From Clostridia bacterium (GTDB lineage: Bacteria; Bacillota; Clostridia; TANB77; CAG-508), in contig JAFWYK010000002.1 of the NCBI GenBank assembly GCA_017517685.1, forward strand, positions 11,477 through 75,476: a stretch of DNA of 64,000 nt. Direction: 5' to 3'. Positions within the stretch are counted from its first letter, which is position 1. Each line of letters begins with the position of its first letter. The position numbers and the translations under genes were made by a program. Under the pieces are notes generated by a model that saw only the letters and a program-made list of their open reading frames with translations, was not told where the DNA came from and did no database searches. Shown here in pieces: positions 20,480 to 62,492 of this stretch.

Positions 20480-20828
20480 CTTTAAAGTAAATCTATAAGC
20501 CGGGTTCTGTCGTGGATAGTCATTTATCTAGAATATATATTGCTATATATTTCAAGCCACACAAATCGAGAAAATGGCGAGCAGCCTTAACTTTCTCTAC
20601 AAGGTGTTGCTCCAGATAGGGTTTACACAGCCGATATATCACTATACCGCTGGTGAGCTCTTACCTCACCTTTTCACCTGAACCATATTTCTATGGTTGT
20701 TATTTTCTGTTGCACTTTCCCTAAGGTTACCCTCGCTTGACGTTATCAAGTATCATTGCTCTATGGAGCCCGGACTTTCCTCTTGTGAATCCTTTCGAAT
20801 TTCACCAGCGACTATCCAATTTACTCTA
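20480..20828 (-). ncRNA. rnpB: RNase P RNA (bacterial type)
   Basis: Minus strand reads GAGGAAAGTCCGGGCTCCATAGAGCA near the 5' end and ACAGAACCCGGCTTATAG near the 3' end; P1 complementarity AGTAAAT/ATTTACT; GC-rich island between AT-rich flanks. Confidence 0.85.
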
Positions 20829-41262: not shown

Positions 41263-41667
41263 TTATTTTACAAAAAAATCATAGATTACATCTAAGTCTT
41301 CTTCATCTTTAAATCTATTTTCCATTGGACACATTCCAGTTTTTTCATTATTTATAACATATTCTGTTATAATATCATATTCATAAGGTATATTATTATT
41401 GTCAAAAACATCTTTTCCAAATTTACTTAGTGTTTTAGAGTATACTTTTTTTACTCCTGCTTTAGTCATTAAAGTAGCTGCTACTTTTCCAATAATCTTA
41501 TCAGCAACTATAGCATCTTTTAGACCATCTTTGTTTTCTTTTAATATACTTACTATATCAATTACTCTTTTATTAAAATATTCTTTAATTTCTCCATTTG
41601 AAAACATTACTACTAAACTAGCATCTGTTTCAAACAATCTATTCTTTACAATTTCTAATTTATCCAT
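41263..41667 (-). CDS. Hypothetical protein
   Basis: 134 aa; no recognisable motif; AT-rich hairpin terminator downstream (about 41219-41258). Confidence 0.35.
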   Translation of the reverse strand: MDKLEIVKNRLFETDASLVVMFSNGEIKEYFNKRVIDIVSILKENKDGLKDAIVADKIIGKVAATLMTKAGVKKVYSKTLSKFGKDVFDNNNIPYEYDIITEYVINNEKTGMCPMENRFKDEEDLDVIYDFFVK

Positions 41668-41783: not shown

Positions 41784-42914
41784 CTAACCATTTAACTTAT
41801 TTGTAAAATCTGCCATTGCTTCTGATATTTTAATATTTTGTGGGCATACAGCTTCACAAGATTTACATCCTATACAAGCACTTGGTTTTTTATCATCTGC
41901 CATTGTTTCTATTCTCATTGGAGCTATAAATCCTCCACCTGTTACATTAAATTCATTATATAAAGATATTAATTCTGGTATTTCTAATTTTTGAGGGCAA
42001 TATTCTGTACAATATCTACACTCTGTACATGGTAAAACATTTTTACTTAACATATCTTTTGCTAAATCTAATGTTTTTCTCATTTCGTCTTCGTTTAATG
42101 GTTTAGCTTCTTCGAATGTTTTAATGTTATCGGTTAATTGATCCATTGAACTCATTCCTGATAAAATAACTGTTACTTCTGGGAAACTTTGTAAAAATCT
42201 AAATGCAAAACTAACTGGTGTTTCATCATTTCTTATTTCTTTAATTCTTGCTTCGTTTTCTTCTCCAACATTTGCAAGTTTACCACCACGAATTGGTTCC
42301 ATTACCCAAACTGGAATTCCAAGCTCTTTAAATAATTCCATTTTTGCTTTAGCATCTTGAAATTCATAATCTAAATAATTTAATTGGATTTGTCCAAATT
42401 CCATGTATTTTCCATATACTTCTAAAAATCTTTTTGTTACATCTAAAGTTCCATGAACAGAGAATCCAAAATGTTTAATTCTTCCGTTTTCTTTTTGTTT
42501 TAATAAATAATCTAAAGTTCCATATTTAGGATCTAAATATTCATTTATATTCTTTTCACAAACGTTATGTATTAAATAAAAATCAAAATATTCAGTTTGA
42601 CATTTTTCAAGTTGTCTTTCAAATATTTCTTCTACTTTTCCCATATTTGATAAATCATATCCTGGAAATTTTGAAGCTAAATAATAACTTTCTCTTGGAT
42701 ATTTACTTAAAAGTCTTCCTGCTACCATTTCTGATTCACCACCATGGTATCCCCATGCTGTATCAAAATAATTAATACCATTATTAATAGCATATTCAAT
42801 CATTCTTGCGGCATGTTCTTCATCAATTGTTATTTTATCTTCTTTTAACGGAAGACGCATCATTCCAACACCTAAATTAGATAATTTTAAATCTTTAAAA
42901 TTTTTATAAATCAT
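41784..42914 (-). CDS. Aldo/keto reductase fused to C-terminal 2x[4Fe-4S] ferredoxin domain
   Basis: AKR N-terminal region (GTLDYLL, IHNVCE); CTECRYCTEYCP and CIGCKSCEAVCP clusters. Confidence 0.75.
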   Translation of the reverse strand: MIYKNFKDLKLSNLGVGMMRLPLKEDKITIDEEHAARMIEYAINNGINYFDTAWGYHGGESEMVAGRLLSKYPRESYYLASKFPGYDLSNMGKVEEIFERQLEKCQTEYFDFYLIHNVCEKNINEYLDPKYGTLDYLLKQKENGRIKHFGFSVHGTLDVTKRFLEVYGKYMEFGQIQLNYLDYEFQDAKAKMELFKELGIPVWVMEPIRGGKLANVGEENEARIKEIRNDETPVSFAFRFLQSFPEVTVILSGMSSMDQLTDNIKTFEEAKPLNEDEMRKTLDLAKDMLSKNVLPCTECRYCTEYCPQKLEIPELISLYNEFNVTGGGFIAPMRIETMADDKKPSACIGCKSCEAVCPQNIKISEAMADFTNKLNG

Positions 42915-43073
42915 ATAGCCTCCAAATTAATTTTTTCTACTTTGATATTATATAATTTTATAAAATTTATAGCAATAAAAAAAGACATAGTTTTTTTAAA
43001 AATAACGAACATATTTACTACACATATCAATAAAAAAAGCATTACTATTTCTAGTAATGCCTTTAATTATTTA

Positions 43074-45059
43074 CTACGATAAGATTACTTTTCTAATAAA
43101 TCTAAACGCATCATAAAGAGCAACTCTACCATCTAAATTATAATCTCTAATATGTTTATCAAATAATGATAATTGTTTTCCATATAATACGTTTTTAAGA
43201 ATTTGAAAAGCATCATATAATCTTACTTTTCCATCTCCTGTAACATCTCCACTAACTGCTACAGAATATTCTCTTGCTGTATTTCCTGATTTATCTTTAA
43301 TAATAATTTGATTATAAGATCCCATATAATCAGAATTTGCTTTTTTGGTTCCTTCTTGAGTTAATACTTCTACAGTATAACCTCTATCTAAAACCGGAAA
43401 ATTTTCTGCAGTTATAACTTCAGAAATTGCTGTTTTATCTTCAAAAGAAATTGCTAAAATATCATCAAATTGCTCTTCTTTTAAAGTTGTATATACAAGC
43501 TTTGGAATAACTTCTACTTGGCAAGTAGCTGTTATACCATTTACTGCAGCAGCATATACTATTGTTTTTCCTTCACCTACTGCTGTTACTTTTCCATTTG
43601 CATCAACTGTTGCAACTTTTTTGTCATTTGATCTCCAAATAAGAGATGTATCTTCTGTTGTATTGCTTGGTGCTATAGTTGCATTTAAAGTATATGTCTC
43701 TGTTACTCCAAGTTCTAATGTTAACTTTGTCTTATCAAGTGATAAACCTGTAATAGGATAATAAACAAGTTCATTTGTTTTTCTTGTAGTAGGTACAGTT
43801 GAACCATTTACTATATCAATAGTATCATAATAAAATTTACCATCTATACACTCTATTGAATAAATTACTTTTTCACTTGGATTTGGCAACGTATATATTT
43901 TTTCAACAACATCACGTGGAAAATTTATTTTATATATACTACTCATTGTTGTAAAATACATATTATTTCTAAGTGATGTAAGTCCAGCTTTATATAAAAC
44001 ATATTCTGTATCTATGCTTTTTGAAGTAATTGTAATAGGGTCTACTCTTAAATCAGCACAATTGAACATTAACGAATTAACTTGTGTTGTTCCTACAACA
44101 TAATACCATAAATAATCTTTGTAAATTAAATAATTTTCATTACCATACCAAAATTCTCTATCATATCTTGTATTTGTAGCAGTAACGTTTCCTGGAACAA
44201 CCCAACTATAATGCTGTCTACCAGAATCAGACATTCCTGAATCACTTACAATAAAATGCATATATCTTGTTCTTCCAACTCCACCGTCATCATCATCCCA
44301 AGTAACGTCTACGTGATAATAATTTCCATTAAGTTCAACCATGCTCCAAGCATGACTCATAGCAGAGCTTGTTACGAATAATGTATTAATTCCTACTTTA
44401 CTTAACAAATAATTAAATGCTTTAGAGTATCCATCACAAACCGGTTCTTTATCAACTAAAGCACCATATAAAGTATGTGATGTAGTTATAATATTTTTTG
44501 CATACGAACAATTCTTACAAAGGAAATCTTTTGTATATATTATTTTTTCCAAATCATTCCAAGAAGATTGTATTCCTGCTAAATATTCTTTAACAACTCC
44601 ATCTATTATTGCATTTGAATCATTAATTTCAACTTCAGACATTAAATAAGTAAATTCTAAACTTTTTACATATACAAGTCCTGTTTCTGTATCTTCATAT
44701 CTATAATATCTTACGCTTGTAGGATCAACAAAGAATAACTCTGGCACTTCAAACACTTTAAGAACTAGTGCATTTATATTTGATTCTAATATGTTATACA
44801 TAGAAACATCTATATTTGGATTCATTAGTTTAACTTGAGTAATTAAATATTCTTCAAGCGGTGTTTCTGCATTAAATGTAAAAGTAGAAAACTTATTTAG
44901 TTTTGGTTTTTCATTTTTATATACTTCTTCTCTTATTTTATAATAATTATCTTGTGTAAAACTAATTGTTGCAGCAGTTTCTGTTGCATCTGCAGGAATT
45001 GCTAATAATAAAAGAAATAAAAATAATATTAAATTAAAAAATATTTTGTTTTTCTTCAT
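43074..45059 (-). CDS. Secreted transglutaminase-like (C-H-D) protein with a Big_2 domain and C-terminal type-I dockerin
   Basis: Signal peptide; VCDGYSKAFNYLL...HAWSMVEL...YHVDVTWDD; Big_2 (VATVDANGKVTAVGEGKTIVYAAA); dockerin repeats DVTGDGKVRLYDAFQILKNV and DYNLDGRVALYDAFRFIRKV. Confidence 0.6.
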   Translation of the reverse strand: MKKNKIFFNLILFLFLLLLAIPADATETAATISFTQDNYYKIREEVYKNEKPKLNKFSTFTFNAETPLEEYLITQVKLMNPNIDVSMYNILESNINALVLKVFEVPELFFVDPTSVRYYRYEDTETGLVYVKSLEFTYLMSEVEINDSNAIIDGVVKEYLAGIQSSWNDLEKIIYTKDFLCKNCSYAKNIITTSHTLYGALVDKEPVCDGYSKAFNYLLSKVGINTLFVTSSAMSHAWSMVELNGNYYHVDVTWDDDDGGVGRTRYMHFIVSDSGMSDSGRQHYSWVVPGNVTATNTRYDREFWYGNENYLIYKDYLWYYVVGTTQVNSLMFNCADLRVDPITITSKSIDTEYVLYKAGLTSLRNNMYFTTMSSIYKINFPRDVVEKIYTLPNPSEKVIYSIECIDGKFYYDTIDIVNGSTVPTTRKTNELVYYPITGLSLDKTKLTLELGVTETYTLNATIAPSNTTEDTSLIWRSNDKKVATVDANGKVTAVGEGKTIVYAAAVNGITATCQVEVIPKLVYTTLKEEQFDDILAISFEDKTAISEVITAENFPVLDRGYTVEVLTQEGTKKANSDYMGSYNQIIIKDKSGNTAREYSVAVSGDVTGDGKVRLYDAFQILKNVLYGKQLSLFDKHIRDYNLDGRVALYDAFRFIRKVILS

Positions 45060-45069
45060 ATTTTAGTCC

Positions 45070-45855
45070 TTAATTATTATTAAATTTTTCTGATTTTATA
45101 CATACACTATGTACTAATATTCTTTTTCTACCAGATTTATCGCAAGTAGAAAGTGTTAATAATTGATCTGTCTTATCTGGTACAACATTATATTCTATAT
45201 CAGATCTTTCAAGCATTTCTTCAATGTATTTTTCTTGAGTATCATCATCAACTATATTAGATTTTATTGCATAATTGTCTGGTTTTGCCATATATGATGA
45301 AAATACTCTATATATCATCTTTTTAAGTGGTGTATATAATTCAATTAGGACTTCTTCTCCTAATTCATTACTTTGAACTTTTTGCAAATCAGCAAACATA
45401 ATTCCTGATTTTATATTATGACCATATATAACAGTATTTTTGTCTATCATTTTACTGTTATTTTTATAATCCATAAAAATCCAACCACAAGTATTATACT
45501 TTCTATTAAAATCTTTATGAAGATAATAATCATTATCAGTTGTTTGCAAAACCGGATAATCTATTGATGTTCCAGGAATTTTAAGCCAAGCAACAGTATC
45601 AGTATTTATATCTGTTAAGCTTTTAAAATCAACTGGATTAATTAATAAGTCTTCATCTTTCTTTAATGTTTCTTTAAAACTAGTCTTTATTAATTTAGCT
45701 TTTAAGCTTTCTGCTTTTCCATTATAAATTCCCCATCTTATTAAATTAACAAGAGAAAATATAAATAGAAAGAAGAATACTACAAATAGTATCCCATTTC
45801 TCAATACTTTAGTTTTTAATCTTTTACTTAAATCTCTATTTGATTGTCCTGCCAT
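45070..45855 (-). CDS. srtB: Class B sortase
   Basis: N-terminal TM anchor; IYGHN His; LTLSTCD (TLxTC) catalytic Cys motif; conserved Arg. Confidence 0.75.
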   Translation of the reverse strand: MAGQSNRDLSKRLKTKVLRNGILFVVFFFLFIFSLVNLIRWGIYNGKAESLKAKLIKTSFKETLKKDEDLLINPVDFKSLTDINTDTVAWLKIPGTSIDYPVLQTTDNDYYLHKDFNRKYNTCGWIFMDYKNNSKMIDKNTVIYGHNIKSGIMFADLQKVQSNELGEEVLIELYTPLKKMIYRVFSSYMAKPDNYAIKSNIVDDDTQEKYIEEMLERSDIEYNVVPDKTDQLLTLSTCDKSGRKRILVHSVCIKSEKFNNN

Positions 45856-45929: not shown

Positions 45930-48900
45930 TTATTTTTGATTTATCGTATATTCAATCGATTTAAATCTTGTAAACATTCCAAGTAGTGATATTATCATCA
46001 TTGAAACTAACGCTCCAACGTTCATATCTCCTGTATGAGGTGATGTAACTAAACCTTGAACTGCTGATGTTGTATTGTTTTTATTTGAGTTTTTATTAGT
46101 TGTGTTTGTTGCAGCATTTGTTCCTGTGTTAGTTGCTGCTATATTTGTTGAAGTATTTGTTGCTGTTGTATTTGTTACTGTATTATCAGTTGTTGTATTT
46201 GTAGTTGTATTAGTCGTATTTGTTGTATTTGTTGTGTTTGTAGTATTTGTTGTGTTAGTTGTATTTGTTGTATCTTCTTCCTCAGGTTCTTGTTTATCTG
46301 GATTTTCTTCAATTATAAGCTCTACTTGAGAAACAAATTCTTTTTCTTCACCTTCACCATTTACAGCAACTACTGTTGTTGTAATAATTACTGTACCAGC
46401 TTTTTTAGCTGTTACTTTTCCATAGTTATCAATTGTAGCCATAGATTCATTAGATGTTTCATATGTTAATGTTACATCATCTGTACTATCCACTGGATTA
46501 TATTCTACAGTTAATTGAACTTGTTCACCTTCTAAAACTTTTTCATTTTCAAGTATTGTCTTAATTGATTCAAGTTCTACTTCTTTAACTTCTATATCCA
46601 TTGAAACTTCTTTACCACCATCTCCTTTGGCAGTAATTGTTACTTTACCTGCTTTAATACCTTTTACAACACCATTAACATCTACTGTAGCTATTTCTTC
46701 ATCACTTGTTTCCCAAGTTATTTTATCAACAGCTCCAACTGGCTCTAATGTAACTTCTAATTGAACTTCTTCACCTTTTAATAATGTTTCAACTTTTTGA
46801 TTAATTGTAATTGAATCTGCATATAATGGTGTAACTCTTACCTTTCTTGTAGCAGTTAATCCATTACCTAAATTTACTGTGATTGTAGCTTCACCTTCAG
46901 ATATAGCTATAAGTTCACCTTTTTGATTTACTGAAACTATAGCTTGGCTACTTGATTTCCATAAACCTTTTGGAATATTTGTAGCATTTGATGGTGTATA
47001 TACTAAGCCTAAAGTTGCTCTTTGACCAACTTTAATTTCTAATACTTCTGAACCATTTTCAATTTCTACACCAGTTAGTGTAACTCCAACACTTACTGTA
47101 CATGTAGCTGTTTTACCAGCAAGTTTTGCTTCAATAATTGCTGTACCAGCACCTACTGCTGTTACAATTCCATCTTCTACTGTAGCAACAGTTGGATTTA
47201 ATGATGTCCAAATTGTACCATTTATTTCATCTACTGTAGCATCTATAGGATTTTTTGTAACAATTAATTTATCTGTTGAAGTTTCTCCTAACTCTAAAGC
47301 CATTTCTGTAATATTTAATGAAATAGAATTAAGTTCGCATGTTACTTCAACAAGTGTTGTTGCTGTTAGTCCAGCTGCTGTAGCAGTAATTGTAGCTGAT
47401 CCAACTGAAAGTGCTGTAATCTTTCCTGTTTCATCTACTTTTACAACTTTTGGATCGCTTGACATCCAAGCAACTGTTGTATCGTCTGTTGTATTTTCTG
47501 GTTCTACAGTTGCAACTAATTGATCTGTATCACCTTTATTTATAACTAAACTTGTTTTATTTACTACTAAAGTTGAAGCTTTAATTTCTGGAACTGTAAC
47601 TGTTATTTTATCAGTTTTTCCATTTACTGAAGTAGCAATAATATCAGCTGTACCTGGAGTAATTGCAAAAATTGTTCCGTTGTGAATTGCAACAACTTCT
47701 GGATTTGTTGATCTCCATATAATTGTTCTAGATTCAGTAAAAACTTCTGGGAAGAAGTCTACATTTAAAACTTCAGTTTGTCCTTTTAATAGTTCCATTT
47801 TTTTATCAACTATTTTTTCATTTTTTATTTCAATTGATTGTAAGTGAGCACTTACTATTACATCTGTTGTTGCAGTAAATGTACCAACAGTTGCAGTAAT
47901 AGTTGTTGTTCCATGAGCTTTACCTGTAACTAATCCATTTTCATCAACTGTAGCTACATCTGGATTTGCTGAAACCCAAACAGTTGGATTTTTATCTGTT
48001 GTATCAACTGGATCTTTAACTACTGTTAATTGCTCTTGTTGATCTATATCAATATCAATTTCAGATTTATCAATTGTAATTCCTTTTAATGGAGCATCTA
48101 CAGTTACTTCTACTCTTTCAGTATATGTACCACATGAAACTCTAATTTGAGTTGAACCAGCACCTACAGCTGTTACTAATCCATTATGATCAACACTAGC
48201 TATACTATAGTCATTTGATACCCATGTAATTACTGCTGTACTTGTTGTGTCTTCTGGTTGTTTGTCTGCTGTTAATTGGAATGTTTCACCTTTTAACATA
48301 TTTATTGCTGAATGACTAACTGTAATACCAGTTAATGGACTTTTTACTGTAATAACTGAACTAGCTTCAAATCCAGCACATGTAGCAATAACCGTTGCTG
48401 TACCAGAACCAACTGCTGTTACAACTCCATTTTCAACAGTAACTACTGAAGTATCACTTGATACCCATTTAATTTTTTCAGAATTTCCTGTATTTGTAGG
48501 TTCTTTTGTTGCTGTTAATTGATATGTTTTTCCTTTATTAATTGTAGCTGTTTCAGGTTTTAATGTTAATCCTGTCATTGCAGGTCCACCAGATACTGTT
48601 ATATAACTTGATGAAGTTACTTCAGTCTCTGAATTTTCTGAACCATCATCTAAATCATACATAATTTTATCAAAAGCAACTGTTGAAGTTCCTTCTGAAA
48701 TTACTTTAAATTTAAGTGTTCCAACAGTTCCTGTTTGAGCAATTGCTACTGGAGTATTGAAAGTTATTGTAACTATACCATCACTAACAAGTCCCATTGC
48801 AACTGTATGACCTGGTGCAATATCAGAATTTAAACTATAACCAGTACCAGCTAGTAATTGTATATCTTCTCCACTTACCGCATCTGGTATTATTTCTAAT

Positions 48901-49136
48901 ACTGTTGGATCATATTTTACAGCTAAAACTAATGATTTTTGATTTTCTAAACCATCAGAAAGGTTAATTCCAACTGATATTTCCTCATTAACTTGAGCTT
49001 TTTTTGATCCACCAGCAGTTCCATCTACTGTCATAGTAAAACTTGGCTCTGCTGCATAACTGATTAAATTTGGCATAAAAGAACTAATAATTGTTATTAT
49101 TAATAGTACTGCTATTAGCTTTCTTCTTATCCTCAT
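45930..49136 (-). CDS. Cell-wall-anchored giant surface protein: N-terminal cohesin-like domain, about 9 Big_2 Ig-like domains, Thr/Asn-rich linker, SPHTG sorting signal
   Basis: Start set at MRIRRKLIAVLL because AGGAGG lies 6 nt upstream; cohesin-like FTMTVDGTAGG...LVLAVKYDPTVLEII; repeated ...TVxNGxVTAVGAGTATI... Big_2 units; C-terminal SPHTG + hydrophobic + RFKS. Confidence 0.6.
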   Translation of the reverse strand: MRIRRKLIAVLLIITIISSFMPNLISYAAEPSFTMTVDGTAGGSKKAQVNEEISVGINLSDGLENQKSLVLAVKYDPTVLEIIPDAVSGEDIQLLAGTGYSLNSDIAPGHTVAMGLVSDGIVTITFNTPVAIAQTGTVGTLKFKVISEGTSTVAFDKIMYDLDDGSENSETEVTSSSYITVSGGPAMTGLTLKPETATINKGKTYQLTATKEPTNTGNSEKIKWVSSDTSVVTVENGVVTAVGSGTATVIATCAGFEASSVITVKSPLTGITVSHSAINMLKGETFQLTADKQPEDTTSTAVITWVSNDYSIASVDHNGLVTAVGAGSTQIRVSCGTYTERVEVTVDAPLKGITIDKSEIDIDIDQQEQLTVVKDPVDTTDKNPTVWVSANPDVATVDENGLVTGKAHGTTTITATVGTFTATTDVIVSAHLQSIEIKNEKIVDKKMELLKGQTEVLNVDFFPEVFTESRTIIWRSTNPEVVAIHNGTIFAITPGTADIIATSVNGKTDKITVTVPEIKASTLVVNKTSLVINKGDTDQLVATVEPENTTDDTTVAWMSSDPKVVKVDETGKITALSVGSATITATAAGLTATTLVEVTCELNSISLNITEMALELGETSTDKLIVTKNPIDATVDEINGTIWTSLNPTVATVEDGIVTAVGAGTAIIEAKLAGKTATCTVSVGVTLTGVEIENGSEVLEIKVGQRATLGLVYTPSNATNIPKGLWKSSSQAIVSVNQKGELIAISEGEATITVNLGNGLTATRKVRVTPLYADSITINQKVETLLKGEEVQLEVTLEPVGAVDKITWETSDEEIATVDVNGVVKGIKAGKVTITAKGDGGKEVSMDIEVKEVELESIKTILENEKVLEGEQVQLTVEYNPVDSTDDVTLTYETSNESMATIDNYGKVTAKKAGTVIITTTVVAVNGEGEEKEFVSQVELIIEENPDKQEPEEEDTTNTTNTTNTTNTTNTTNTTNTTTNTTTDNTVTNTTATNTSTNIAATNTGTNAATNTTNKNSNKNNTTSAVQGLVTSPHTGDMNVGALVSMMIISLLGMFTRFKSIEYTINQK
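46075..46300 (-). repeat. In-frame Thr/Asn-codon microsatellite (TTNTTNTT...)
   Basis: Plus strand (tgttgtatt/tgttgtgtt)n-like repeats encoding TNTTNTTNTT... Confidence 0.6.
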
Positions 49137-50134
49137 AATCTTCCTCCTTTGTTTCTCTTCCTTATAATCAAATATATTCTCAATATAACTGTCATAGTTA
49201 TTAGTATCAAAACGATTATGCAAAAACTAATTAATAGTTTATCTCTTTCTGCTTTTTCTACTTTAGCTATTTCTTTTTTATATTCTTCAACTACTTCTTC
49301 TATAGTTTGTTCTTCACTAGTAGTAGCTTCTGGTAAAAATTTATTATTATTTTCTACTTTTGTAACTCTAATGATTTTTTCATCTTTAACTTCAATTTCT
49401 ACAGTTCCAATTAACTGATAATTGTTTTTTATTCTTACAGTTGTAATACCATTTGATTTTGGTATCATTGTTCCATCGTCCATAATCTCTAATATATCAA
49501 TATGTTCAGTCTCATAAACCAAATCATCTTCAATATCAAATTTCATATTTGCACTATTTATAAGAATATTTTCAATTGATTCTAATTGTTCTATTTCAGT
49601 AACTTCAAAATCATTAATTTCTTTTTTAGTTTCAGTTTTTGTTTCTGTTTTTATTTTTTCTTCTTTTGGTATTATTATTTTTCCGCTTTTTACACTACAT
49701 GAAACGTCATTTCCATCTTTATCACAAACTTCTTTTGCAACTAGTTCTACTGGAATATCAGTCGAATCATCTAAAACTTTAAATGATACTTGATAATATA
49801 AACCTTCTTTATCAAAACCAGTAATATTAATTGCACCCATAGAAACTTTACTTTCTTGTGATACATTTTCAGCTAGTTTAAATGTCGCCGATAAATCTTT
49901 GCCTGCTTTTGAATTTAAAAACTCTAACTTTTTAGAATCATACTTTACATCCAAACTCCAACTAGTAATATTTTTTGAAATATTTTCAGAGTATATTTCA
50001 ATTACTACCTTATTTGAATTTGAATATTTTGTAACATCTTTAATATAAAAGCTAGGCTTTGTTACAGCTTCAACTTTAACAGAAAATAATAATACAAAAA
50101 TTATTAAACAAATTTTAGTAATATTAATTCTCAT
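49133..50134 (-). CDS. Membrane-anchored cohesin-like domain protein
   Basis: Signal peptide; FYIKDVTK...WSLDVKYDSKKLEFLNSKAG cohesin-like signature; C-terminal TM helix plus basic tail (IRKRNKGGRL). Confidence 0.5.
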   Translation of the reverse strand: MRINITKICLIIFVLLFSVKVEAVTKPSFYIKDVTKYSNSNKVVIEIYSENISKNITSWSLDVKYDSKKLEFLNSKAGKDLSATFKLAENVSQESKVSMGAINITGFDKEGLYYQVSFKVLDDSTDIPVELVAKEVCDKDGNDVSCSVKSGKIIIPKEEKIKTETKTETKKEINDFEVTEIEQLESIENILINSANMKFDIEDDLVYETEHIDILEIMDDGTMIPKSNGITTVRIKNNYQLIGTVEIEVKDEKIIRVTKVENNNKFLPEATTSEEQTIEEVVEEYKKEIAKVEKAERDKLLISFCIIVLILITMTVILRIYLIIRKRNKGGRL

Positions 50135-50271: not shown

Positions 50272-50301
50272 ACAAAAAGAAGGATAGTTTCCTATCCTTC
50301 T
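50272..50301 (-). terminator. Intrinsic terminator after the ABC transporter gene
   Basis: AGAAGGATAGtttCCTATCCTTCT followed by a T-run on the minus strand. Confidence 0.6.
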
Positions 50302-50309
50302 TAACAATT

Positions 50310-53300
50310 TTATTCACTTCTTAAAGCAAGCACCGGATCTTTTTTAGCTGCTTGTTTTGATGGTATTAAACCACCTATTAATGTTAGTATTACACTTAGA
50401 ATAACAAGTATCGTTCCTCCTACTGTTGGAAGAATAGCTGTTATATCTTCATTTACACTATGAATTATCATATTTGTAGGTATTAATAGTAGTAAAGTAA
50501 CAACTATACCCATAATACCAGAGAATAATCCAACTATAAATGTTTCTGCATTAAATATAGATGATATATTTCGTTTTGAAGCTCCTATAGCTCTTAATAT
50601 ACCAATCTCTTTTGTACGTTCTAATACAGAAATATAAGTAATAATTCCTATCATTATTGAAGAAACAATTAATGATATACTAACAAATGCAATTAATACA
50701 TAACTTACACTATCTACAATTGTTTTTACTGATGACATTAATATTCCTGTTATATCAGTATAATTAATAACTTTTTCTTCATCCTCTTTTTCCATTTTGT
50801 CATTATAATCATCTAAGAAATCTAAGAATAATTCTTTAGAATCAAAGTTATTAAAGTAGAATGATATATATGAAGGTTCATCTATATCTTGATATCCAAG
50901 AGTAATTAAATTTGTAGTTGCATTTTCTACTGTTGTACTAGACATTGCTTGGAATAAACGTTTCATTTCATCTTCATCCATTTCAAATTTAAATGCTGAA
51001 GCAAATTTATCTGTATCTACATTAAACGCATTTCCCATTTTTTCCATTAATTTTCCTGTTAATTCACCAACTTTTGTTAAAATTGATTTTTGCATAACAG
51101 CTTCTGTCATACCTGGAGCTATTTGATCAGCTACCGCTGTTATCTCTTTTTGTGTTAAAAGAGTATTTACAACAGTATCAATTGTATTTGCAGCTATTGG
51201 CGCTGATAAATCTGCAGTTCCTGCATTTCCACCACCTGGTATTCCAGGAATACTTCCAACTGTATTAGATGTGTTAGTTACAGTATTTCCAACAACTGTA
51301 TTATCAACACTTGTATTTCCAGTATTGGTATTAGTATTTGTATTTGTATTTGTATTATCTCCACCAGGAATTTGTCCTGCAGGTCCTCCAGGAATCATTG
51401 AGCCACCGCCCATTCCTCCACCAGAACCTAACATAGCAACATATCCTTGTAATACACCTTTTATAAGTCCACCATACATTTCTTTAAAAGTATCTTTAGG
51501 AATTACATATTTTGATTCTAAGTCAGAAAGTATTGATTGATTTTCTGATGATTTTAGTCCATCATCAACAATCTTATCAATTTCACTTAGCTTAATCATT
51601 GCAACTCCAGCTGTACCTTTTGAGTTTACATGATCAGTTAATATATTTTTTGTTAATTTCTTTAAACCATCTAAGTATGCTGCTTTAGCCTTTGATGTAT
51701 CTGTTGTTATTGCTGAAGATATTTCTCCGATATAGCCTTCTGTTAATTTCTTAATGTCATCTTCATTAATGTTTACACCAAAAGCTTTTGATAATGCATC
51801 TTCATCTATAGAAACCATATCTTGAAAATCAAGACCAGTATTCTTTTCTTCATCGTCAAAACGTTTACCACTAAATACATTTACATTTTTATCCGCTAAT
51901 TGTTTTTTTACAATTACAGATTTTGCAGCTTCTGACATAACATGTTCTGTTAATGCTTTAGTATATACAACACCTGAAGTCATGCTTCCAGTATTAGATG
52001 TTGGTTTAACAATTGCTGTAACTTTAAGTGGAGTTCCTTCTTTATAAACTTTTTCCATGAAGTCTTCATCATCAGACATATCTTCATAAATATCATATTT
52101 TGGATTGAATTTATATGTCTTTGTTGCATCAATTAACTTAAGTTCAATATTCATAAGTTCATCATATGATAATGTTAAAGGTTTTTCTGTATTTTCTACT
52201 TTTTCGCCTTCTACTAATTTTGCAATCATATCTTCAAGATCATCCAGGTCTCTTAATCCTAAAGCATATAATAATAAGTCAGATACTGAATCTTCATCTG
52301 GAAGAACAAGCATTATTTCATCATAATTCTCTGGCCATTTACCTTCAATAATTTCGTATTGTTCTTCGACCATATCCATATTATCAACCATTTGACTAAA
52401 AATAGTTATGCCCATTCCCATCATGCTTGAAGAACTACCCATTAATGATGAAATAAAATCACTTGGATTTAGAAGCATTAATTCATCTGTATTTCTATCC
52501 TTAGTATAAATCATTGGAGAAACAGAATATTGATAATTAATATAAGAAACCATCTTATCTACTTCTTCTTTGTTTTCTTCTACATAATGTTTAAAAGATT
52601 TTAAATCATTTTTTCCAACAGTAGCAAACATATCAGCTATATTTTGTTTTTCTACTACTGTTCTATCTTTTTTCTCTTTTTCTTCTTCATTTTCTACTTG
52701 TCCTAATAAAAGTGCAGCAGCATCTGCTGTTTCAGATTCAAGTGTAAGTGGATATGAAGTAAGAGTATCTTCTTGAATTTTATCTATATAATTTTGAAAT
52801 CCTGTAGATAAAGATAAAATCATCGCAATACCAATAATACCAATTGAACCAGCAAAAGATGTTAGTATTGTACGCCCTTTTTTAGTAAGTAAGTTATTTA
52901 AACTTAGTGTAAATGCTGTTAACATAGACATTGACGACTTACCTAAGTTTTTATGTTTTGGTTTTTCTCTACCTTTTTTCTCTACATTAAATGGATTAGA
53001 ATCATCTGTTATTTTTCCATCTCTTAATTTTACTATTCTTGTTGAATATTGTTCAGCAAGCTCTGGATTATGTGTTACCATTACAACCAAACGATCTTTG
53101 GCAACTTCTTTTAATAATTCCATAACTTGAACACTAGTTACAGTATCAAGAGCACCAGTTGGCTCGTCAGCTAATAAAATATCTGGATCATTAACTAAAG
53201 CTCTTGCTATTGCAACCCTTTGCATTTGTCCACCAGACATTTGTGTAGGTTTTTTATGAGCTTGTTCTCTTAACCCAACTTTTTCTAACGCTTCTAAAGC

Positions 53301-53663
53301 TCTTCTTTTTCTTGTTCTTTTTGAAATACCGCTAATTGTTAAAGCAAGTTCAACGTTTGCAAGAATTGTTTGGTGAGGTATTAAGTTATAACTTTGAAAT
53401 ACAAATCCAACTGTATGATTTCTATATGAATCCCAATCTCTATCTTTGTATTTTTTAGTTGATACATTATTGATAATTAAATCACCTTTATTGTATCTAT
53501 CAAGTCCACCTATAATATTAAGTAATGTTGTTTTTCCAGAACCAGAAGGTCCAAGTATTGAAACAAATTCATTGTCTCTAAAACTTAAACTAACATCATC
53601 AAGTGCAACTTGTACTAAATCGCCAGTTTTAAATTGTTTAGATATATTTTTGATTTGTAACAT
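50310..53663 (-). CDS. Fused MacB-type ABC transporter: ATPase, large extracytoplasmic domain and FtsX permease
   Basis: Walker A GPSGSGKTTLLN, LSGGQ signature, Walker B ILLADEPTGALD; C-terminal FtsX-like 4-TM domain; 1117 aa; internal TNTNTNTNTNTG repeat. Confidence 0.75.
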   Translation of the reverse strand: MLQIKNISKQFKTGDLVQVALDDVSLSFRDNEFVSILGPSGSGKTTLLNIIGGLDRYNKGDLIINNVSTKKYKDRDWDSYRNHTVGFVFQSYNLIPHQTILANVELALTISGISKRTRKRRALEALEKVGLREQAHKKPTQMSGGQMQRVAIARALVNDPDILLADEPTGALDTVTSVQVMELLKEVAKDRLVVMVTHNPELAEQYSTRIVKLRDGKITDDSNPFNVEKKGREKPKHKNLGKSSMSMLTAFTLSLNNLLTKKGRTILTSFAGSIGIIGIAMILSLSTGFQNYIDKIQEDTLTSYPLTLESETADAAALLLGQVENEEEKEKKDRTVVEKQNIADMFATVGKNDLKSFKHYVEENKEEVDKMVSYINYQYSVSPMIYTKDRNTDELMLLNPSDFISSLMGSSSSMMGMGITIFSQMVDNMDMVEEQYEIIEGKWPENYDEIMLVLPDEDSVSDLLLYALGLRDLDDLEDMIAKLVEGEKVENTEKPLTLSYDELMNIELKLIDATKTYKFNPKYDIYEDMSDDEDFMEKVYKEGTPLKVTAIVKPTSNTGSMTSGVVYTKALTEHVMSEAAKSVIVKKQLADKNVNVFSGKRFDDEEKNTGLDFQDMVSIDEDALSKAFGVNINEDDIKKLTEGYIGEISSAITTDTSKAKAAYLDGLKKLTKNILTDHVNSKGTAGVAMIKLSEIDKIVDDGLKSSENQSILSDLESKYVIPKDTFKEMYGGLIKGVLQGYVAMLGSGGGMGGGSMIPGGPAGQIPGGDNTNTNTNTNTNTGNTSVDNTVVGNTVTNTSNTVGSIPGIPGGGNAGTADLSAPIAANTIDTVVNTLLTQKEITAVADQIAPGMTEAVMQKSILTKVGELTGKLMEKMGNAFNVDTDKFASAFKFEMDEDEMKRLFQAMSSTTVENATTNLITLGYQDIDEPSYISFYFNNFDSKELFLDFLDDYNDKMEKEDEEKVINYTDITGILMSSVKTIVDSVSYVLIAFVSISLIVSSIMIGIITYISVLERTKEIGILRAIGASKRNISSIFNAETFIVGLFSGIMGIVVTLLLLIPTNMIIHSVNEDITAILPTVGGTILVILSVILTLIGGLIPSKQAAKKDPVLALRSE

Positions 53664-62409: not shown

Positions 62410-62492
62410 TGGTGCCCGAGGCGGGACTCGAACCCGCATGGTTTCCCGCACGATTTTGAGTCGTGTGCGTCTGCCAATTCCGCCACTTGGGC
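62410..62492 (-). tRNA. tRNA-Leu (anticodon CAA) with encoded CCA
   Basis: Cloverleaf by eye: acceptor GCCCAAG/CTCGGGC, D-arm GCG-GAATTGGCAGA-CGC, anticodon loop CTCAAAA, long variable arm, T-arm GCGGG-TTCGAGT-CCCGC, ACCA end. Confidence 0.85.

Follow-up and report, generated by a model that had tools for sequence, protein, structure and literature searches.

We identified, in a 64,000-nucleotide stretch of contig JAFWYK010000002.1 from a Clostridia bacterium (assembly GCA_017517685.1; "the window" below means this whole stretch), a gene for a secreted enzyme that joins a transglutaminase-fold catalytic module resembling Streptococcus pyogenes TglA to a C-terminal dockerin. Considered jointly, the evidence makes it likely that this TglA-like enzyme has an intact Cys208-His236-Asp251 triad, is displayed through a co-encoded cohesin/sortase unit, and acts more probably as a hydrolase than as a cross-linking transglutaminase.

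The catalytic core was evaluated by translation, profile search, homologue alignment and structural modelling. The original prediction had picked out three motifs as a transglutaminase/cysteine-protease triad, and translation confirmed all three as written. They share one minus-strand reading frame, span amino acids (aa) 208-256, and lie within the open reading frame (ORF) at 43074..45059:

44415..44438, minus strand: CDGYSKAF, aa 208-215, with the invariant nucleophile C208 (codon TGT, 44436..44438) opening a helix
44331..44354, minus strand: HAWSMVEL, aa 236-243, with invariant H236 (codon 44352..44354) and W238
44292..44318, minus strand: YHVDVTWDD, aa 248-256, with invariant D251 (codon 44307..44309) and T253

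The spacing of the triad is Cys-x27-His-x14-Asp. Pfam Transglut_core (PF01841) scored 26.1 bits (gathering cut-off 23 bits; E 1.1e-5) in a match of aa 164-251 to positions 9-107 of the 108-position profile, and it likewise matched every one of 23 full-length or near-full-length orthologues. An alignment of 64 homologues, with a mean column identity of 16% and members down to ~17-25% identity, retained only five invariant columns, namely C208, H236, W238, D251 and T253. The persistence of these five residues amid such divergence points to purifying selection on catalysis rather than on binding. A strict motif search over the ORFs of 80 related genome loci recovered 60 matching ORFs in 58 loci; the Cys-His interval was 28-29 residues in 58 of these ORFs, with values of 31 and 36 in the remaining pair, and the His-Asp interval was exactly 15 residues in all 60.

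Structural modelling gave the same picture. Helix 208-220 begins with C208 and strand 236-243 with H236; D251 comes just after strand 246-250, which lies next to the His strand. A Cys on a helix facing His and Asp on adjacent strands defines the catalytic sites of papain-fold and transglutaminase-fold enzymes. The profile match, the invariance across 64 homologues, the model topology and the alignment to TglA therefore support the assignment of C208, H236 and D251 to the catalytic positions known from transglutaminase-like (papain-fold) proteins; the alignment proposed as a check on that assignment was run, and the three residues do map there. Because they do, the core is judged intact, and we found no sign of a degraded active site in the enzyme, which on its sequence is most likely catalytically competent. 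The earlier description of the triad as canonical in order and spacing holds for the order; for the spacing it holds within the microbial TglA-like family (28 and 15 residues), but not against animal transglutaminases.

Family searches identified TglA (PDB 9CRN, deposited as a "transglutaminase-like domain-containing protein" and released 2024-08-14) as the closest solved relative. The two proteins belong to the same catalytic family and share motifs and Cys-His-Asp order; phmmer aligned the motifs one-to-one (E 1.5e-8), pairing CDGYSKAF with VCNGYAQAF, HAWS with HAWN, and VDVTWDD with VDVTWGD, and the first motif also corresponds to VCRDFAH in 3ISR. The complete TglA-like motif set, VC-x-GY-x-x-A[FY], HAW[NS] and VDVTW-x-D with Cys-x27/28-His-x14-Asp, is present in the enzyme. 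Our family profile A2 matched 9crn_A residues 20-348 (E 2.8e-54, 188.5 bits, 329 residues), and since this match runs across both the N-terminal subdomain and the core, it places the enzyme in the TglA-like subfamily. A domain-only model of the catalytic module (predicted local distance difference test score, pLDDT, 91.2) had 9crn as its top Foldseek match (2.3e-8), followed by 3isr (5.2e-5), with 4xz7, described as "a TGase", and 3kd4 (9e-4) also recovered. Further Foldseek matches comprised the inactive transglutaminase-like domain of menin, arylamine N-acetyltransferases and PNGase.

Both TglA and the enzyme are extracytoplasmic, but their architectures differ. TglA is a 410-aa lipoprotein with no Big_2 domain, X module or dockerin, its gene stands alone, its identity to the enzyme is ~18-30%, and its Cys-His interval is ~8 residues longer. 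The other structural relatives are likewise similar only in part. The structural-genomics proteins 3ISR (a putative cysteine protease of Cytophaga hutchinsonii) and 3KD4 (Parabacteroides BDI_1141) share the core fold with the Cys-helix motif aligned (profile E 6e-5), but the likeness is limited to that core; they carry other accessory domains and no dockerin. For mouse PNGase (2f4m), 61 core columns can be superposed at 1.9 Å, but its zinc-binding and PUB/PAW modules are absent here. Animal transglutaminases (TG2, factor XIIIa) have the superfamily fold and the Cys-His-Asp order in common with the enzyme, but not their flanking beta-sandwich and beta-barrel domains.

The wider family, made up of extracytoplasmic Firmicute proteins, is very large and diverse. 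A search of 1.84 billion cluster representatives returned 8,354 at E<=1e-10, from proteins of 300 to >4,500 aa, and the homologues carry assorted anchoring modules, including a lipid anchor (TglA), SLH domains, dockerins and others. Dockerin-borne members made up only ~4 of the 60 motif-matching ORFs from the genome loci. Scanning genomes with alignment A1 yielded 316 relatives, and scanning with the single protein none; the closest named genomes were Candidatus Scatovivens metagenome-assembled genomes (MAGs), at 44-46% identity. The gene neighbourhoods of two homologues without dockerins (P0148 and P0158) and of TglA shared no common partner gene. Pfam and NCBIfam gave no match to the BTLCP (DUF920)/LapG-type periplasmic cysteine protease profile, and the NCBIfam model for MAG6410 family transglutaminase-related lipoproteins (NF045980) was rejected, scoring 79 bits against a cut-off of 450 with only core aa 165-278 aligned.

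A separate set of residues distinguishes the dockerin-borne clade. All 23 dockerin-borne orthologues retain C181-x-x-C184 (44508..44519), H195 and H249 without exception, but the wider family and TglA do not conserve them. These positions could form a clade-specific disulphide or metal (zinc) site near the active-site strand.

The remainder of the protein is organised as a series of modules, in the order signal peptide, catalytic module, beta module, Big_2, X module and dockerin, and it was modelled confidently as a whole (AlphaFold2, 661 aa, mean pLDDT 92.7):

43074..45059, minus strand: enzyme gene, an ORF for a 661-aa secreted protein with Pfam Transglut_core, Big_2 and Dockerin_1 matches
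44985..45059, minus strand: Sec-type signal peptide, aa 1-25 (MKKNKIFFNLILFLFLLLLAIPADA, …AIPADA, with an A-x-A site), read from the sequence
44130..44978, minus strand: catalytic module, aa 28-310, comprising an N-terminal helical/beta subdomain and the transglutaminase-like core, from profile and fold matches
43767..44126, minus strand: all-beta module, aa 312-431, with ~11 strands in the model and repeated aromatic YY/YF motifs
43506..43754, minus strand: Big_2 Ig-like domain, aa 436-518 (Pfam Big_2, 35.5 bits)
43254..43502, minus strand: beta "X" module, aa 520-602, directly N-terminal of the dockerin, with strands at 528-602 in the model
43077..43250, minus strand: dockerin, aa 604-661, with two Ca-loop/helix (F-hand) repeats

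Orthologues spanning the full length are 37-98% identical to the enzyme. A helix is modelled at residues 3-19 within the signal peptide, and the N-terminal pattern is the same in all orthologues. The beta module (~120 aa, confidently modelled) matched neither a Pfam family nor a PDB sequence; it is kept in all 23 orthologues and may shape substrate binding. The X module, which matched no Pfam family, is also kept in 23 of 23, including the shorter orthologues that have no Big_2, a domain present in 11 of the 23.

The original prediction had also called the enzyme dockerin-borne, and this description stands. The two calcium loops (D605-V-T-G-D-G-K-V-R-L-Y-D616 and D639-Y-N-L-D-G-R-V-A-L-Y-D650) each run into an LYDAF helix, which makes the repeats internally symmetric; the repeats are identical at 10 of 23 positions, and their helices were modelled at 614-625 and 648-660. 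Neither the two F-hand loops nor the LYDAF helices vary across the 23 orthologues, 13 of which match Dockerin_1 at E<=0.01 (best E 7.2e-7). Weak PDB matches for the segment were to the solved dockerins 6kge and 3ul4. Judged on these sequence features, the C-terminal module is a genuine dockerin that falls just below the Pfam threshold.

Four co-oriented minus-strand genes lie between terminator-like hairpins; the enzyme gene comes last, and the three genes preceding it supply candidate partners for the dockerin:

50277..50302, minus strand: terminator-like hairpin at the end of the ABC-type gene upstream; marks where the four-gene unit starts (5′ boundary)
49133..50134, minus strand: membrane-anchored cohesin protein, 333 aa, with a signal peptide, a cohesin-like domain (~49655..50065), a second beta domain, a transmembrane (TM) helix (49163..49237) and a basic tail
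45930..49136, minus strand: stalk/scaffoldin, 1068 aa, with a signal peptide, an N-terminal cohesin (~48567..49055), eight Big_2 domains, a T/N-rich linker, an SPHTG signal (46029..46043), a TM helix and a basic tail
45070..45855, minus strand: class B sortase (Pfam Sortase), 261 aa, with a TLSTC active-site motif, 10 nucleotides (nt) upstream of the enzyme gene
43035..43064, minus strand: terminator-like hairpin with a 13-base-pair stem and a T-run, 10 nt past the enzyme stop codon; 3′ boundary of the unit

The genes are closely spaced, separated in turn by an ATGA overlap, 74 nt and 10 nt. The overlap concerns the stalk gene, whose mechanically called ORF begins at TTG 49223; the ATG at 49136 overlaps the stop codon of the 333-aa gene and is probably the true start, giving 1068 aa and a normal signal peptide. 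This overlap suggests translational coupling of the membrane-anchored cohesin gene and the stalk.

Cohesin assignments differed in strength between the two partners. The stalk cohesin matched PF00963 at 39.3 bits (isolated N-terminus; cut-off 24.1), and its eight Big_2 domains were recognised by Pfam. For the 333-aa protein, two of four orthologues (40-53% identical) matched Pfam Cohesin (best E 1.3e-10), precomputed matches for its orthologues were labelled "Cohesin" or "Cohesin (weak)", and hhalign gave a weak match to the stalk cohesin (E 2.8e-4 over 59 columns). Orthology shows that the 333-aa protein carries a predicted cohesin. The sortase scored 177.9 bits against NCBIfam TIGR03064 sortase_srtB (cut-off 153.75), and its TLSTC motif is kept in orthologues. 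The stalk sorting signal [T/S]SPHTGDMN is kept, together with the TM helix and basic tail, in six orthologues and paralogues, as TSPHTGDMN in five and SSPHTGDMN in L086, and SPHTG fits the (S/P)PxTG motif recognised by Clostridioides difficile SrtB (PMC4155245, PMC5569036). The stalk is the only sortase substrate, and the enzyme the only dockerin-bearing protein, in the 64-kb window.

Comparison with other genomes revealed that the arrangement is conserved. The same four-gene order occurs in four further loci, making five cassettes with the window, in which the enzymes are 98% (L081, strain level), 46% (L084, a Candidatus Scatovivens MAG), 42% (L085) and 37% (L086) identical to that of the window; L085 and L086 are more distant metagenomic contigs whose flanking genes are unrelated to the window's. 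In an unrelated metagenomic contig (L089:6640-10459), a 479-aa transglutaminase-like-dockerin gene lies between two small cohesin-Big_2-dockerin adaptor genes. The conserved order in five cassettes and the cohesin genes beside the L089 gene indicate that the enzyme is the constant cargo of a small cohesin-dockerin system.

Cassette content nevertheless varies between strains, as the comparison of L081 with the window indicates. L081 (L081:12113-21986) encodes a 1278-aa protein with LRR_5, Big_2 and dockerin modules directly after the enzyme gene, whereas in the window that position is taken by an aldo/keto-reductase-ferredoxin gene (41784..42914), an insertion relative to L084. Leucine-rich repeat (LRR) and Big_2 dockerin proteins follow the enzyme gene in both L081 and L085. 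L081 also contains a second, paralogous cassette. It encodes, in turn, a protein of 87 aa, a cohesin protein of 325 aa, a Big_2 stalk of 998 aa with an SPHTG end, a sortase, and a paralogue of the transglutaminase-like enzyme that shares 39% identity with the window protein.

With cohesin-bearing partners and a sortase encoded immediately upstream, surface display of the enzyme is well supported at the level of gene content. In the mechanism we propose, SrtB would join the stalk to peptidoglycan through the SPHTG signal, and the X-module/dockerin pair would bind one or both cohesins in a Ca2+-dependent manner, which would bring the catalytic module to the cell surface. The enzyme would then probably sit distally, on the tip of a Big_2 stalk tens of nanometres in length, but it could also lie near the membrane on the 333-aa protein, or at both in turn. 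Catalysis would proceed through a Cys208 thioester (thiol acyl-enzyme), with a peptide or a side-chain amide as the group attacked.

Hydrolysis, by a protease, isopeptidase or amidase acting on an extracellular protein, appears likelier than transamidation, given the precedent of prokaryotic transglutaminase-like proteins, most of which, where characterised, are hydrolases (for example LapG and PeiW/PeiP), and given that the enzyme has none of the domains that flank the core in true transglutaminases. The recurrent pairing with LRR-dockerin proteins hints at protein substrates. The original prediction had suggested spore coat, biofilm or host proteins as targets; the locus holds no evidence for any of these.

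Several observations weigh against this interpretation. Against Dockerin_1 (PF00404) the full-length protein reached 21.0 bits and its C-terminus alone 22.4 bits, below the cut-off of 22.9; the 333-aa protein has no direct Pfam cohesin match; and the window holds two cohesins against one dockerin. The catalytic module has Ser at residue 239, a position occupied by Asn in at least 90% of homologues, and a zymogen-like N-terminal segment is possible, since aa 28-48 connect to the core through a disordered linker (aa 52-61, pLDDT <50). The literature searched contained no published activity for any member of the subfamily, and the preference for hydrolysis derives from family precedent, not from a tested feature of the enzyme.

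The alternative that deserves most attention, although we consider it unlikely, is a true cross-linking transglutaminase, forming Gln-Lys isopeptide bonds that stiffen or polymerise the Big_2 stalk or glue adhesins or host proteins to the cell. The same Cys-His-Asp chemistry would support transamidation, the fold matches include 4xz7 ("a TGase"), and the enzyme is the constant cargo beside a sortase and a stalk; moreover, the LRR-dockerin proteins co-encoded in L081, L085 and the transglutaminase-like/LRR operon of Ruminococcus flavefaciens would fit a "bind then fix" scheme. Against these points, Pfam and NCBIfam matched the generic core only and none of the Transglut_N/Transglut_C (animal), Streptomyces MTG or Bacillus Tgl profiles, the Cys-His spacing is 28 residues here but ~58 in animal transglutaminases, the characterised prokaryotic relatives are mostly hydrolases, and no acceptor or donor substrate is visible. 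A more elaborate version would make the locus a self-contained non-cellulosomal display stalk whose TglA-like enzyme serves as a covalent coupler, transamidating LRR- and Big_2-dockerin adhesins or host/mucus glycoproteins onto the surface, or polymerising the stalk; we regard it as improbable, and if true it would represent a sortase-independent route to covalent adhesion in gut Clostridia. There is similarly little probability, in our estimate, that the enzyme is a cell-wall hydrolase acting on peptidoglycan stem peptides or isopeptides, in remodelling of its own wall or in attack on neighbouring bacteria. Archaeal PeiW and PeiP are transglutaminase-fold pseudomurein endoisopeptidases, homologues of the enzyme are fused to wall-binding modules such as SLH, and the gene of one homologue has an LCP wall-polymer ligase gene as its neighbour; transglutaminase-like "proteases" in the S-layer or anchored to the wall have also been recorded in clostridia, among them Clostridium tetani S-layer variants whose "cell wall-binding protease" domains are transglutaminase-like (PMC3919590). 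A position at the tip of eight Big_2 domains, however, would hold the active site away from the cell's own wall, Pfam found no LysM, SH3 or CW_binding module in the enzyme, and no immunity or lysis genes lie nearby.

Two further alternatives question the functional modules themselves. That the transglutaminase-like module is a non-catalytic binding domain with a vestigial triad, as in menin or Rad4, seems very improbable: the inactive domain of menin is among the fold matches and no activity is documented for the family, but the triad residues together with W238 and T253 are the sole invariant positions over 64 sequences, and the triad spacing is fixed in 58 of 80 loci. We also consider it rather improbable that the dockerin is solely a Ca-binding stabilising module that binds no cohesin, leaving the enzyme free in the medium or retained by another means. 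Some dockerin-like modules have no known cohesin partner, and the sub-threshold Dockerin_1 score and the imbalance between cohesins and dockerin in the unit would be compatible with that arrangement; the strict adjacency of dockerin-enzyme and cohesin genes in five cassettes and an independent locus, and the invariance of the F-hand loops and LYDAF helices in 23 orthologues, argue instead for cohesin binding. Surface display of a catalytically competent enzyme, more probably hydrolytic, thus remains the interpretation we prefer.

Known systems offer partial precedents for this displayed enzyme. Dockerin-borne transglutaminase-like proteins were already catalogued in 2010 in R. flavefaciens FD-1 (PMC2930009), which encodes ten SIGN-transglutaminase-like-dockerin proteins, four of them (ORF01263-01266) in tandem with an LRR-dockerin gene (PMC2930009, PMC5301203). 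Compared by their described architecture, those proteins resemble the enzyme in their signal peptide, transglutaminase-like domain, C-terminal dockerin with symmetric repeats and co-encoded LRR-dockerin protein (as in L081 and L085). They belong, however, to a large cellulosome with 223 dockerins, whereas the enzyme described here is the single constant cargo of a two-cohesin, sortase-B cassette that is non-cellulosomal. Indeed, nothing in the window amounts to a cellulosome or amylosome, in that the sole dockerin protein is the transglutaminase-like enzyme and each scaffold carries a single cohesin.

The display side of the unit resembles sortase-anchored single-cohesin scaffoldins such as R. 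flavefaciens ScaE and those of the Ruminococcus bromii amylosome (PMC4611034), in which a wall-attached cohesin protein captures dockerin proteins, as proposed here. C. difficile SrtB and its (S/P)PxTG substrates likewise pair a class B sortase with an SPxTG-type signal. The present unit differs from the ScaE and R. bromii systems in that its cargo is transglutaminase-like, not carbohydrate-active, its cohesin stands on a stalk of eight Big_2 domains, and a second, membrane-anchored cohesin is co-encoded.

What is modestly new is the compact, conserved cassette of a sortase B, two cohesins and one enzyme; as it stands, the result is a sound annotation and not a discovery. The literature yielded no published function for TglA/9CRN (only an unrelated ribosomally synthesised and post-translationally modified peptide named TglA turned up), and among the 8,354 family representatives we found no member with an assigned reaction and one with a solved structure. 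The locus provides an unusually clean setting for the function of the family, in which one conserved operon of this uncultured gut Clostridium relative encodes a single enzyme, two candidate cohesin receptors and a sortase. Should an activity and a substrate come to light, they would allow the annotation of thousands of gut-bacterial surface proteins labelled "transglutaminase domain-containing", S. pyogenes TglA included.

The stalk linker shows features of its own. This T/N-rich, low-complexity segment (TTNTTNTTN…, with many N-x-T triplets; ~46050..46330) lies just N-terminal of the sorting signal and yields a spurious plus-strand ORF (46075..46329); a similar NTNTNT/G-rich insert occurs in the upstream 1117-aa ABC ATPase-permease fusion (50310..53663). 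Glycosylation of such T/N-rich linkers is possible. A PNGase-like amidase activity on the N-T-T-rich stalk linker was also considered, and no supporting evidence was found.

The genomic setting was assessed from the flanking genes and RNAs. Synteny between the window and L084 extends on both sides of the cassette. The flanking 134-aa TM1506-like gene (41263..41667) is 71% identical to its L084 counterpart (L084:12007-12411), against 46% for the enzyme, a difference expected for fast-evolving surface proteins. Two RNA genes were located in the window:

20480..20827, minus strand: bacterial RNase P RNA, class A (278.8 bits)
62413..62492, minus strand: tRNA

Their presence indicates that the window is chromosomal. 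With a guanine-plus-cytosine (GC) content of 28% and nearly all genes on the minus strand, the window fits a leading-strand-biased stretch of chromosome from a low-GC Firmicute.

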